From: Parcubacteria group bacterium GW2011_GWF1_45_5
GTDB taxonomy: Bacteria > Patescibacteriota > Minisyncoccia > UBA6257 > Brennerbacteraceae
Assembly (NCBI GenBank): GCA_001001795.1
Contig: LCLB01000004.1
Coordinates: 1 to 36,435 of the forward strand
Length of the DNA stretch: 36,435 nucleotides
Reading direction: 5' to 3'
Of the stretch, positions 19,175 through 28,420 are shown one piece after another (positions within the stretch are counted from its first letter, which is position 1; every line of letters starts with the position of its first letter). The notes beneath the pieces are model-generated. The model was not told where the DNA came from. It was given only the letters and a program-made list of their open reading frames with translations, and did no database searches. Both the position numbers and the translations under genes were made by a program.

Positions 19175-20959
19175 TCACCTTACCTTTGAAATTTTCTCTA
19201 TATCTTCGATTTCCTTCTTGAGGAAACGCTCCGCCTGGTCCAGATTATCCTCTAACTGTTCGATAACCTTGCCCTCTTCTCTGGTGAGCTCCCTCTTAGT
19301 CTTGGTAACGCTTAGAAGGCCAATTTGATCCCTCACTGTGCCACGGAGGAAATCAAAGGCGCGGTGGACTCCCTGCTCCGCTTCAAGAATTTCTTTTTGC
19401 ATGCCTTTGCGGAATACCGTAATACGTTTCCGGATGTACAGTGATACCACGACCAGGATGGTCAACAGAATACCAAATATGATAAGCATGACGATTACGC
19501 TTGCCGCCGATGTTCCCAGTTGAACAAATTTGTTCTGTTCCACTATGACTGAATACTTTTCCGTAGGCAAGCTTTGGGCACCGCGCTTATCGGTTACCTT
19601 CGCCCACATCTTGTAAACCCCTTCTTTCAGATGATCGTCCGCGATGAAGGTGAACGCACCGCTGTCGTTTGAGGAAATAACGAATGAATGCGGTCCCTCC
19701 AGGCCACGCTGAAGGAAAATGGTAACGAGCGCATCAGGATAGGTGTTCCCCCGAACCACGAAGAAATCCGTTGCATCGAGCGAACGGGGATACTCGATAA
19801 TAACAGGTGTGTCAATGGGTAAAATCGTAAGGTCAAGGGAATCGGTCGTATAGTTTCCCGCGAGGTCGAACGCCTGAACCAACACGGTATGCGTTCCGGG
19901 CGGATAAGGACCAAGGGTGTGAGGGTTGCTTTTCGCCAGCTCTGCGGACACGTTTTTAAAATCAGAGTCACCGACCTTTACCTTATAAAAATCAATACCG
20001 GAAAGGGCGTCGGTGGTGTCAAACAACGCCACCGGACGAGGGTTGCGGGTTTCCGGACCATCAACAAACTTAATCTTGAAGGGTCGCGGAGGAGTAACAT
20101 CTATACGAAACTTGAACCGGTACACCGGCCCCCACCCGTTTGCGGTTCTCATTTGCAAAACAAGGTACCAGATTCCCTCATTTATGTTCTCAAGACCGTA
20201 CTCCCCGATAGCCGGATCGTACAACTTTGTCGGTTCAACCGAGGCAGACTTCCCGTACCCTACCCGAACCGCAGTGGCGGCTTCCGGAACGTCCCATAAA
20301 AAAACAGGATTCTGATTGCTGTACCATTTCTCCGGGTTAGGATGGGTTGACGACCTGATAACCGATTGCTGCGGCTGTTCCGGTTGCGTTGTCGGGCGCG
20401 GAGAACTTTGAATATACGAATTTAATTGAAACACGGATCCTTCTACGGTTGTCAGTACATTGGTCCCTTGGCCGTCATTCGCCAAAATGCTCGCATTGGC
20501 AATCGATAGCCGAGCTTCCCCGGCTGCTTTGGGACGAAATGTTATAGTCAAGACCTTTCCCCCTATCCCTTGAAAACCGGGGTTCAAAATAATACCTTCG
20601 AAGTTGATTGATCCGGTCTCGTTGGAAAAATTCGGCTCCTGAATCCAAAGACCGATAGACGACCCTGTTTTGGAAATAGAGATCGCCTCCAACCGATTTG
20701 TACGGAAAGAAATGGATCCCGACACCGCGTTAATAGCCTGCTCCGAAGAGGTCACGTATACCACAACCGGGATATCCTGATTCGTCAGGTAATTCCCTGA
20801 TGGCGGGGAAAGGTATAAGGTGGCTGCGGAAGCAAAAGTACCAGAAAGTAGAAAGTAGAAAGTAGAAAGTAGAATAGCCCCTTCAAGAAACTTGAGGAAA
20901 ATACATGTGTTATGCTGTTTTTTTACGATATCGGACATAATACCAAACAATACCCGCAA
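19175..20959 (-). CDS. cohesin-like domain surface protein with Ig-like middle domains, a C-terminal TM anchor and a cytoplasmic coiled coil
   Basis: Signal peptide, then LYLSPPSGNY...AINAVSGSISF...LWIQEPNFSNETGSINFEGII...GKVLTITFRPKAAGEARLSIANASILANDGQGTNVLT, the pattern of the cohesin-domain family common in CPR genomes. TM segment VIVMLIIFGILLTILVVVSLYI is followed by a charged helical tail. An alternative start is at 20938. Confidence 0.8.
   Translation of the reverse strand: MRVLFGIMSDIVKKQHNTCIFLKFLEGAILLSTFYFLLSGTFASAATLYLSPPSGNYLTNQDIPVVVYVTSSEQAINAVSGSISFRTNRLEAISISKTGSSIGLWIQEPNFSNETGSINFEGIILNPGFQGIGGKVLTITFRPKAAGEARLSIANASILANDGQGTNVLTTVEGSVFQLNSYIQSSPRPTTQPEQPQQSVIRSSTHPNPEKWYSNQNPVFLWDVPEAATAVRVGYGKSASVEPTKLYDPAIGEYGLENINEGIWYLVLQMRTANGWGPVYRFKFRIDVTPPRPFKIKFVDGPETRNPRPVALFDTTDALSGIDFYKVKVGDSDFKNVSAELAKSNPHTLGPYPPGTHTVLVQAFDLAGNYTTDSLDLTILPIDTPVIIEYPRSLDATDFFVVRGNTYPDALVTIFLQRGLEGPHSFVISSNDSGAFTFIADDHLKEGVYKMWAKVTDKRGAQSLPTEKYSVIVEQNKFVQLGTSAASVIVMLIIFGILLTILVVVSLYIRKRITVFRKGMQKEILEAEQGVHRAFDFLRGTVRDQIGLLSVTKTKRELTREEGKVIEQLEDNLDQAERFLKKEIEDIEKISKVR
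20844..20875 (-). repeat. heptanucleotide tandem repeat, (AGAAAGT)x4 plus a partial unit, inside the signal-peptide coding region
   Basis: Four perfect units at 20844-20871 followed by AGAA. It encodes LLSTFYFLLS. Confidence 0.9.
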
Positions 20960-26707: not shown

Positions 26708-28420
26708 CTAAAGATTAATGATATTAATCTGGCAGATTGCGATCGAACCATCACTGATATAGATTATCGGGATACTGAAATTCCCTCTTTGAGAACCTTG
26801 CTGGTTGGTAGCGTTCAAAATTACTGTACCGATACTCTTGGAGGGATAATATTCATAACCAGCGTTGTCTTGGAAAATAATATCAATACCAACTGGCAAA
26901 TTGCCGATTTTCAAAATTTCGGTATTACCGCGTATCCCACCCAGCTCAAGTTCAATGGTTTTATGATTCTGTTGTGACAGATCCGCGATAAAATCTTTTA
27001 CCGTACAAAAATGAAAAGACTCCCGGCTAACGGCAAGTTCTTCTCGAAACTTCCTTTCTTTTAATAAAGGTAACGATAGTGACGGGGCCAATAAAAACTC
27101 TGATGGATCTTCTCCTTTAATCGCCTCCGAATCCTCGGGGAGAAACGGTTCCTCGATTACAATCGTCGGCTCAAGAGTTATTTCAATAACTGGCGTCTCA
27201 ATGGCAGTGTCGGTATATTCAACCTCCAGAATCATGGCATCAAGGTACACGTTAGGGACTTCGTTGATGGTTGACAGACTCTGGATGCTGACGCGAAAAT
27301 TAGAAATCTCGTCCCAGGAGTTGACCGGAATATCAGCGGAAAAACCGCCTATTTGCGACGCGTCCAGCAGCGCCAAATCGATCCAATCAACCCCGTTAAT
27401 AGTGTATAAAATCTTCCATAACGGGTCCTGAACACTTACTCCCAAAACCTCCGGACCGACAGACGACGAACTGGCGTTCTCTTGGTCTAGTGCCGGGGTA
27501 ACCAACAACTCCGGAGACATGGACGGCTCCACATTTTCACCGGGGCTCGGTAATAATTCTGTGGTTAGGGATGGCTCCGGGCTCGGCGACAGTTCAGGTG
27601 ACGGTAATGGGTCTTCGGGGGTCGGCTCGATGCTTGGCGCTTCTATTAAAACAGGTATTGGTGTTTCCTCTTGGGCGAAAGCAAAATTTACCAATGACCA
27701 TAACCATGAAATGGGAGTGGTCGGTTCCGGTTCGGTAATTTCAGGAGTTGGTAATGGCTGAACCGATTCTGCCGGGGACGTCTCGATGGTTTCCGGAGGT
27801 GATAGTTCCAATACGGGCGAGATATCGGAACCGACAAACAGCTCTGTTGGTGTCGGCGACAATATCAAAACTTCGCTTTCGGGAATCGGCGCAGGTTCTA
27901 AAATTGGAAAATCCAAAAACACATCGGATGACGAAGACGGCAATAAAAGTACGCTGCTTGAAGCCTCTTCGGTCTTGGTGGTCCAAGACAGCCGTAAAGT
28001 GACTTTTCGAGGTTGTTTTTGCTCAGGAATAGTTCCTAAAAAATCGCCGCAAAAAATTTGCCCGAAGGTATTTTTTCTGAGCAGCGCCGAGTTTTCCGGC
28101 ATAAATGCCGATTGATCGGACTGGTCGGTCACCTGCGGCTCTCCTTGTGCGTATTCCGGATGCTCCCATCCCCCTAAACAGGCATCGGGATAAAAATAAA
28201 CAATATCGGCCTGGGCGAGGTGGACATAAACAAAACCCGCGATACTCCCCGCCATAACCGCCATAACGCAGATTGATAACGCCTTGTGAAAACGGATGTA
28301 ATTCCACACGCTGGTCAGATTGAGCCGCATCGTGACAATGCGATCGCGCAAATCGACCTTGCCTCGTTTTGCTCCGGTATGAACGTCAAAAACCCGCTTT
28401 GATTGTGCTGTTCTATTCAT
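26708..28420 (-). CDS. membrane-anchored Pro/Glu/Ser-rich protein, first gene of the surface cluster
   Basis: TM segment (LSICVMAVMAGSIAGFVYV), long low-complexity PE/PS-rich linker, and a C-terminal beta-rich region. No recognised domain. Confidence 0.6.
   Translation of the reverse strand: MNRTAQSKRVFDVHTGAKRGKVDLRDRIVTMRLNLTSVWNYIRFHKALSICVMAVMAGSIAGFVYVHLAQADIVYFYPDACLGGWEHPEYAQGEPQVTDQSDQSAFMPENSALLRKNTFGQIFCGDFLGTIPEQKQPRKVTLRLSWTTKTEEASSSVLLLPSSSSDVFLDFPILEPAPIPESEVLILSPTPTELFVGSDISPVLELSPPETIETSPAESVQPLPTPEITEPEPTTPISWLWSLVNFAFAQEETPIPVLIEAPSIEPTPEDPLPSPELSPSPEPSLTTELLPSPGENVEPSMSPELLVTPALDQENASSSSVGPEVLGVSVQDPLWKILYTINGVDWIDLALLDASQIGGFSADIPVNSWDEISNFRVSIQSLSTINEVPNVYLDAMILEVEYTDTAIETPVIEITLEPTIVIEEPFLPEDSEAIKGEDPSEFLLAPSLSLPLLKERKFREELAVSRESFHFCTVKDFIADLSQQNHKTIELELGGIRGNTEILKIGNLPVGIDIIFQDNAGYEYYPSKSIGTVILNATNQQGSQRGNFSIPIIYISDGSIAICQINIINL

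Follow-up and report, generated by a model that had tools for sequence, protein, structure and literature searches.

A conserved surface-protein cassette of Parcubacteria that links a WxLIP-type protein and pilin-like subunits to a dockerin and cohesin-like proteins

In a 36,435-nucleotide stretch of DNA from Parcubacteria group bacterium GW2011_GWF1_45_5 (contig LCLB01000004.1, positions 1 to 36,435; hereafter the window), we found a cassette of seven genes, g1 to g7, encoding a homologue of the WxL-interacting proteins (WxLIPs), two proteins that share a pilin-like domain, a dockerin protein and two cohesin-like proteins. The order of these genes recurs in related metagenome-assembled genomes (MAGs). 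From the domains and folds that we identified and from the conservation of the gene order, we consider it probable (roughly 60%) that the cassette is a conserved surface display or attachment apparatus of Parcubacteria in which two non-covalent anchoring modules are inherited together. The kinds of components were already known; their combination, the taxonomic setting and the family of anchoring domains are new. Parcubacteria, or Paceibacteria, are among the most abundant uncultivated bacteria and are thought to be host-attached. To our knowledge, almost nothing is known about their attachment beyond type IV pili.

The seven open reading frames (ORFs) are co-directional, lie on the minus strand, fill positions 19175-28420 and encode exported or membrane-anchored products. 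Their coordinates, as well as the overlaps and tiny gaps between adjacent genes (intergenic distances of -68 to +85 bp), agree with a preliminary description that had been made from the sequence alone. This description presented the seven genes as encoded back to back. All seven are present, but an eighth gene, encoding a small GIY-YIG protein at the g5-g6 junction, had been overlooked. The features of the region are the following (aa, amino acids).

g1, 26708-28420, minus strand: 570 aa, N-terminally anchored, Pro/Glu/Ser-rich, with a C-terminal domain without family match.
g2, 24817-26754, minus strand: ORF of 645 aa (database form, 622 aa) with an N-terminal transmembrane segment/signal, a head of ~400 aa and a C-terminal pilin-like domain.
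Promoter before g3, 24804..24775, minus strand: TTGACA-18-TATAAT, consensus sigma-70-type.
g3, 24105-24731, minus strand: 208 aa; the signal peptide is followed by a conserved beta-strand extension at the N terminus and by a pilin-like (WxL-analogous) domain that stands alone.
g4, 23126-24085, minus strand: WxLIP/DUF916-like and PapD-chaperone-like protein in which two beta-sandwich domains precede a transmembrane anchor at the C terminus.
g5, 22124-23116, minus strand: secreted protein with a Gly-rich linker, immunoglobulin (Ig)-like (Big_6) domains and a C-terminal dockerin.
GIY-YIG gene, ~21787-22104, minus strand: small nuclease-like gene at the g5-g6 junction, not a surface protein (Pfam, 57 bits).
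g6, 20910-21854, minus strand: short protein whose signal peptide is followed by one cohesin-like and one Ig-like domain and, at the C terminus, by a transmembrane segment.
g7, 19175-20959, minus strand: long protein whose signal peptide is followed by one cohesin-like domain, Ig-like domains (Big_13), a transmembrane segment and a charged helical cytoplasmic tail of ~80 aa.
tRNA-Pro, 18980-19053, minus strand: separates a VWA gene from the cluster.

An N-terminal hydrophobic segment was found in 7/7 proteins, and g4, g6 and g7 carry an additional C-terminal transmembrane segment (residues 285-303 in g6 and 487-505 in g7). The g3 protein is 100% identical to UX66_C0001G0026 of Parcubacteria group bacterium GW2011_GWF2_46_8, in line with the origin from the candidate phyla radiation (CPR) that had been suspected.

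We scanned genomes with a search seeded with the g7 alignment and detected g7 relatives in at least 523 species-representative genomes, 80 records of which were fetched. All 80 were MAGs; most of their titles name Patescibacteria lineages, and some automated titles name other phyla. More than 331 clusters at 90% identity were also found for g7. Gene neighborhoods were counted with family hidden Markov models (HMMs), g5 and g6 being scored in the loci with at least 4 kb upstream of g7 (n = 54). The dockerin gene g5 and the cohesin-like gene g6 were found upstream of g7 in 51/54 loci, and g6 was located directly upstream of g7, again in 51/54. Furthermore, g4 was detected in 31 of 45 loci and adjoins g5 in 26 of them. 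In 20/36 loci, the g3-domain HMM matches the ORF that lies directly upstream of g4 (E < 0.1); the typical C-terminal end of this ORF reads ...AGxYxxTLTYxATAN. A g3-type domain usually precedes g4.

Among the contigs carrying g3 relatives (numbered here with the prefix L), the complete order g2-g3-g4-g5-g6-g7 recurs in L002, L008, L011 and, together with g1, in L009/L010, while L005-7 have the cassette order with small rearrangements. Similarly, g4-g5-g6-g7 is kept in more distant contigs of Wildermuthbacteria, Jorgensenbacteria and Paceibacterota. Because the gene order recurs in independent contigs and in 80 species-representative genomes, chance juxtaposition of the genes is ruled out. The preliminary description had raised the conservation of this arrangement as a question, and the WxLIP-like and cohesin-dockerin parts indeed proved to be syntenic in related MAGs.

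The g4 protein had been described as a DUF916-like, two-domain anchored protein. The window copy scores 19.3 bits against Pfam WxLIP_PGBD (DUF916, PF06030), below the gathering score of 27.3, and 9/9 of its orthologues match this family (best E, 2.4e-8). We also compared the g4 family by hhalign with seven real WxLIPs, taken from a WxL/WxLIP comparison set fetched from seven Firmicute plasmid loci, and obtained a probability of 96.8% (E = 2.2e-10) over 157 columns, covering the first domain only. The top PDB match of the g4 family profile was EfmWxLIP1 of Enterococcus faecium (chains 9i25_C and 9i1y_A; E = 1.3e-3), and a 48%-identical relative carries the NCBI name "DUF916 domain-containing protein." No match to PF11797 (HBD, DUF3324) was found in g4 or its orthologues.

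An AlphaFold2 (AF2) model of g4 built from 53 homologues (pLDDT, the predicted local distance difference test score, of 91) consists of two beta-sandwiches (residues 35-165 and 173-271) and a transmembrane helix (274-297). Foldseek aligned 239 columns of this model to the 251-residue WxLIP chain 9i25_C (template modelling [TM] score, 0.40/0.48), which belongs to an entry titled "WxLIP from E. faecium locus A bound to long WxL." In the Foldseek search of the PDB, alignments of ~240 columns were obtained with the class 5 chaperone CfaA (E = 5e-11), with 9i25_C (E = 1.5e-10) and with 9i1y, and further matches were CsuC, DraB, FimC, Caf1M, SafB, YadV and CupB2. The matches to PapD-type chaperones range from E = 5e-11 to 1e-7 with target-normalised TM scores of 0.5-0.58, a likeness at the fold level only. 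Given the profile, hhalign and fold matches, we conclude that g4 is a WxLIP homologue, and that WxLIP-type proteins share the fold neighborhood of PapD-type chaperones. This supports the earlier view of g4 as a DUF916-like, two-domain anchored protein. Some g4 relatives are fused to wall-associated domains, namely, LysM in a Wildermuthbacteria contig (L019, 3600-4790) and LytR_C (P0341), which fits a wall-proximal position of the g4-type protein.

Over its C-terminal 170 aa, g2 shares 59% identity with g3, which had been noted as a small paralogue. In g2, the pilin-like domain spans approximately residues 475-645 (family HMM match at 444-648, E = 2.4e-60), and orthologues of g2 lie upstream of g3 in L002, L008, L009/10 and L011. 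The head of ~400 aa gave no match in Pfam, NCBIfam or PDB. An exhaustive profile search with the shared domain retrieved 893 cluster representatives, 164 of them below 1e-30. The domain makes up either the entire mature protein (~200-240 aa) or the C terminus of proteins of up to 3569 aa, always one or the other. In 46 large members, the heads contain binding-type domains only (for example, DUF5122 propeller, fn3, DUF2341, Laminin_G_3 and BNR), and no enzyme domain was found among them by Pfam.

Both g3 and the C terminus of g2 had been taken for WxL-like modules, which our searches do not support. Single-sequence and profile searches of the PDB with g3 returned only spurious antibody or lipase matches. 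A Pfam scan of 24 g3 relatives revealed no consistent family and no WxL, and the Pfam WxL model (PF13731) matched 0/24 small and 0/46 large family members. In hhalign (local mode), the g3 family reached a probability of 0.7% against ten real WxL domains from the seven Firmicute plasmids. A 168-sequence profile of the g3 family reached 1.6% (single-comparison E of 0.03), the greedy alignment being collinear. Of the two Trp-x-Leu motifs of WxL domains, the first is present in g3 as GWNL and in most close members as GWxL, whereas every member of the 24-sequence alignment has (I/L)TxTA, which lacks Trp, in place of the second. The C-terminal strand, YDGTLTMTALVNP, aligns with the strand bearing the second motif, without significance. 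Judged from these sequence comparisons, g3 and the g2 C terminus form an unannotated domain family and are not detectable members of WxL.

The AF2 model of g3 (pLDDT, 80.9) looks like the donor-strand pilins. Its top fold matches were CfaB, the TasA fibre, Fim, Csu and AggA pilins and CanA, all of them weak (E of 2e-3 to 0.1, TM score of 0.4-0.59). Upstream of g3, where a near-consensus promoter had been noted, we found a perfect one with 12/12 consensus matches, the sole perfect site within 17000-30200; the total count of promoter-like sites in this region was not above shuffle expectation. A second, shorter class of g4-adjacent proteins (~170-215 aa), ending in ...TPNPSTxFTxQSxxVTVQA and barely detected by the g3-family HMM, was seen directly upstream of g4 in L046, L050, L064, L068, L078-L080, L086 and L088. 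In this class, the anchoring domain probably has a divergent sister family.

This arrangement resembles the WxL/WxLIP (Csc-type) systems of Firmicutes (PF13731, PF06030, PF11797; PDB 9i25). A WxL gene cluster has been defined as a minimum of one WxLIP together with two WxL proteins within four genes, most commonly a WxLIP, a small WxL protein and a large WxL protein with a C-terminal domain, and the WxLIP is predicted to contribute a strand that completes the WxL sandwich (Hassan et al. 2023, PMC10599100). The cassette has the same layout of an anchored WxLIP-type, a small and a large protein. Its g4 is truly homologous to the PGBD domain of WxLIPs, and g3 shares the first Trp-x-Leu motif without the second Trp. 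In view of this predicted strand completion, we propose that, on present evidence, the g3 domain works like WxL, which it resembles in architecture and in having a WxLIP homologue as partner, without being a demonstrable member of that family. Several differences should be mentioned. The g2/g3 domain is not preceded by a Pro-rich N-terminal linker, and the cassette has no LPXTG protein or sortase. Moreover, it is syntenic with cohesin and dockerin genes, unlike the seven Firmicute plasmid loci that we fetched. Finally, its host belongs to the CPR, whereas WxL has been reported almost only in Lactobacillales and Bacillales (PMC10599100).

The g5 protein had been described as ending in a duplicated dockerin repeat. 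Dockerin_1 (PF00404) scored 25.7 bits in g5 (cut-off, 22.9) and was also found in 6/6 orthologues from related contigs (best E, 1.5e-9), and Big_6 scored 30.5 bits. The two 12-residue Ca-loop repeats, DVNNDCRVNLVD and DINGDSKVDLID, are both kept in all six orthologues, confirming at the sequence level that g5 carries a dockerin.

The N-terminal domains of g6 and g7 (~140 aa) are paralogous to each other (24% identity, E = 5e-13). The claim that both proteins are cohesin-like holds at the family level but not for the window copies taken alone, which lack a Pfam Cohesin match. Pfam Cohesin (PF00963) was detected in 36/83 g7 relatives (E up to 1e-3; best, 8.5e-9) and in 4/13 members of the set comprising g6 and g7, and a precomputed PF00963 match exists for 20/120 g7 relatives. 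In addition, a joint profile of the g6 and g7 domains matched only Ruminococcus flavefaciens cohesins in the PDB (E of 0.005-0.03). By these sequence criteria, the N-terminal domain of g6 and g7 is likely, but not proven, to be a cohesin. The Ig-like Big_13 domain of g7 scored 33.9 bits. The cytoplasmic tail of g7, conserved among relatives, is predicted to have coiled-coil character.

As in non-cellulosomal cohesin-dockerin pairs, the dockerin at the C terminus of g5 is type-I-like and contains two EF-hand-like loops and, as in anchoring scaffoldins, g6 and g7 are cell-anchored with N-terminal cohesin-like domains. In contrast to cellulosome scaffoldins, there is a single cohesin per anchor, with no enzymes and no carbohydrate-binding module (CBM). 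The anchor is a C-terminal transmembrane helix instead of an S-layer homology (SLH) domain or a sortase signal, and g7 has a cytoplasmic tail. Compared with other cohesin systems, the cohesin likeness of g6 and g7 is weak and detectable only at the family level. Our literature search did not link WxL, DUF916, cohesin or dockerin to Parcubacteria, and the exception within the CPR was one Saccharibacterium dockerin. This is SEML1_0315 of Southlakia epibionticum, an essential dockerin-domain envelope protein with a speculated role in host adhesion (PMC10633639). Like g5, it is a dockerin-bearing envelope protein of a CPR bacterium, likened here by description only. It comes from a different CPR class, and no cohesin partner or WxLIP-like neighbor was reported for it (PMC10633639).

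The first gene of the cassette is less constant. With 9.3% P, 9.1% E and a single transmembrane segment at residues 48-66, g1 is indeed the PE-rich anchored protein that had been announced. It has no match in Pfam, NCBIfam or PDB. A full-length orthologue was seen in L010 only (32% identity), and fragments of it in L009 and L002, all three being related metagenome contigs. We conclude that g1, the first gene, is an optional part of the cassette.

In the model that we favor, module A would consist of the membrane-anchored g4 capturing the pilin-like C-terminal domain common to g3 and g2, with g3 as the small, strongly promoted subunit and g2 as the large subunit with a variable N-terminal head. 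The contact between g4 and its subunits would most likely be made by a beta-strand inserted into an incomplete beta-sandwich, as predicted for WxLIP and WxL. In module B, the C-terminally anchored cohesin-like proteins g6 and g7 would hold the dockerin of g5 in a Ca-dependent manner, and g7 would add its cytoplasmic helical tail. The variable heads of the g2-type proteins may confer binding specificity, toward a host cell or a substrate, and the highly conserved g5-g7 would form the structural platform. All physical contacts in this model, as well as the surface location and the adhesive role, are what we infer from domains, folds and gene order.

Several observations weigh against this model. 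As described above, neither Pfam nor hhalign detects the g3 domain as WxL, and the fold matches of this domain are weak; in addition, the solved WxL chain 9i25_A is absent from the top 50 fold matches of g3. Neither g6 nor g7 of the window has any match to Pfam Cohesin, and a profile made from g7 only found no cohesin in the PDB. Furthermore, L001 and L004 carry g2, g3 and g4 only, without g5-g7, indicating that the two modules can function apart. Finally, g5 and g7 retain 38-58% identity across lineages (tblastn), which suits a housekeeping envelope structure no less than an adhesin specific for a host.

A rather unlikely but still live alternative is that the cassette builds an usher-less, pilus-like fibre of a monoderm cell. 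In such a fibre, g3 would be the major subunit, polymerizing by donor-strand exchange via its N-terminal extension. The g2 protein, with its pilin domain but without a donor strand, would be the tip adhesin, g4 the membrane-bound chaperone and terminal anchor, and the cohesin-dockerin pair the basal platform. The known counterparts would be the chaperone-usher pili, above all those of class 5 (CfaA/CfaB) and the archaic ones (CsuC/CsuA/B), and the TasA fibres. The top folds matched by g3 are all donor-strand polymers, and the top matches of g4 include their cognate chaperones CfaA, CsuC, FimC, Caf1M and SafB; in both of its domains, the g4 model fits chaperones of the PapD type. The large and small subunits also mirror tip adhesin and major pilin. 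Small members of the g2/g3 family have a conserved N-terminal extension of alternating hydrophobic residues with the consensus TSTVTLSVTVNQ; the motif occurs in 40/77 small versus 5/86 large members, with an information content of 15.5 versus 8.1 bits. In the AF2 monomer of g3, this extension is unplaced (pLDDT, 49-58), as a donor strand would look, and this is the basis of the fibre reading. A perfect promoter of its own is likewise what would be expected for the gene of a major subunit.

However, the fold matches of g3 are no better than E = 2e-3, and the N-terminal segment may be merely the first strand of the g3 domain. Among the papers and PDB matches, there was no solved WxL polymer, and the title of 9i25, the sole solved WxL entry found, names a WxLIP in complex with a long WxL. 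The cassette encodes no sortase, usher or signal-peptidase-type assembly factor detectable by Pfam or NCBIfam, and in contrast to chaperone-usher systems there is no outer membrane and the chaperone-like protein is membrane-anchored. The likeness to these systems is structural only (8-15% identity), and polymerization is hypothetical. As a speculative extension that we consider unlikely, we put forward a chaperone-usher-like, donor-strand-exchange fibre without usher in which g4 would prime and anchor g3 polymers carrying variable-headed g2-type adhesins as tips on a cohesin-dockerin base made of g5-g7. If this were true, the WxL/WxLIP systems of Firmicutes and the chaperone-usher pili of Gram-negative bacteria would share a strand-complementation ancestry.

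It is improbable, in our view, that the cassette is instead a housekeeping envelope scaffold, for example, an S-layer or wall-to-membrane tether, rather than an adhesin, with g2, g3 and g4 as an accessory module linked by happenstance. Such a function would suit the presence of g7 relatives in so many species genomes, at ~35-47% identity across candidate phyla, as well as the nearly invariable linkage of g5, g6 and g7, the conserved cytoplasmic tail of g7 and the LysM or LytR_C fusions of some g4 relatives. Nevertheless, in most loci of sufficient length g4 is found before g5 (26 adjacent of 45), and g4 partners with proteins bearing hypervariable, binding-type heads, which are typical of adhesins.

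A cellulosome-like, polysaccharide-degrading surface complex, modeled on the Csc clusters of lactobacilli and on classical scaffolds, has hardly any likelihood left: cohesin-like and dockerin modules are present, and the role first proposed for Csc/WxL clusters was in carbohydrate utilisation (Siezen 2006, as cited in PMC10599100), but we reject this reading because neither Pfam nor NCBIfam revealed an enzyme domain in any of the seven proteins, with no glycoside hydrolase, lyase, esterase or CBM among them, none of these domains was found in the 46 large g2 relatives, and each locus has a single dockerin gene, whose product carries Ig-like domains only. The absence of an obvious enzyme domain had already been noticed in the preliminary description.

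With g7 relatives in at least 523 species genomes, few surface-protein loci of this group are as widely conserved as the cassette. Its parts with recognizable folds are concrete, testable candidates for an attachment or envelope apparatus. The data extend the WxLIP family far outside Firmicutes and define a large, unannotated family of C-terminal anchoring domains (893 representatives). Moreover, the proximity in fold of WxLIP-type proteins to fimbrial chaperones suggests that monoderm-type cells use anchoring by strand complementation far more widely than has been assumed.

The VWA gene next to the cluster (17672..18949) had been suggested to belong to the same system. We rejected it as a cassette member: no syntenic copy was found in any relative, neither in the metagenome contigs nor in those of distant lineages, and a tRNA-Pro gene lies in between. 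A pair of genes encoding a pseudouridine synthase and ribosomal protein L19 is found beside the cassette both in the window (15628-16872, plus strand) and in the Wildermuthbacteria contig L019 (522-1679), which hints at a wider conservation of the chromosomal neighborhood.

The g5-g6 junction harbors small nuclease-like genes in several lineages. The GIY-YIG gene located there in L019 (8863-9114) is 65% identical to the window gene, and a PDDEXK_3 gene is found instead in L009 (~6694-7100) and L020 (2160-2576). L021 has a GIY-YIG gene immediately behind g7 (11745-12005). The junction is free of GIY-YIG in L002, L005, L008 and L011. The window GIY-YIG gene is probably a selfish insertion, and the junction looks like a recurrent insertion site of selfish elements inside a conserved operon.

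Upstream of g1, we noted a promoter-like site at 28458..28429 on the minus strand. A hairpin with an 11-bp stem, trailed by a T-rich tail, is located at 23048-23075 on the minus strand, right after g4 and within the part of g5 that encodes the signal peptide. This hairpin could act as an attenuator of read-through from module A into module B, although terminator-like sites in the cluster region are not enriched versus shuffles. The ORF upstream of g1 (28438-30042, minus strand) resembles a CCA-adding enzyme by eye only. As listed, it runs across tRNA-Arg(tcg) (29931-30005, minus strand), and its true start must therefore lie downstream of the tRNA.

Elsewhere in the window, positions 1-7000 have a lower GC content (0.36-0.40 versus 0.47-0.50), and a gene for an IS1595-type transposase (4815-5618, minus strand) adjoins one for a transglutaminase-core protein (5673-6581, minus strand); this part may be a horizontally acquired patch. 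Finally, an ORF of 761 aa (9562-11847, plus strand) encodes an unusual fusion of an NAD-dependent epimerase/dehydratase to a PLP-dependent Orn/DAP/Arg decarboxylase domain, and it adjoins the gene for a YfhO-type membrane protein (12590-14809).

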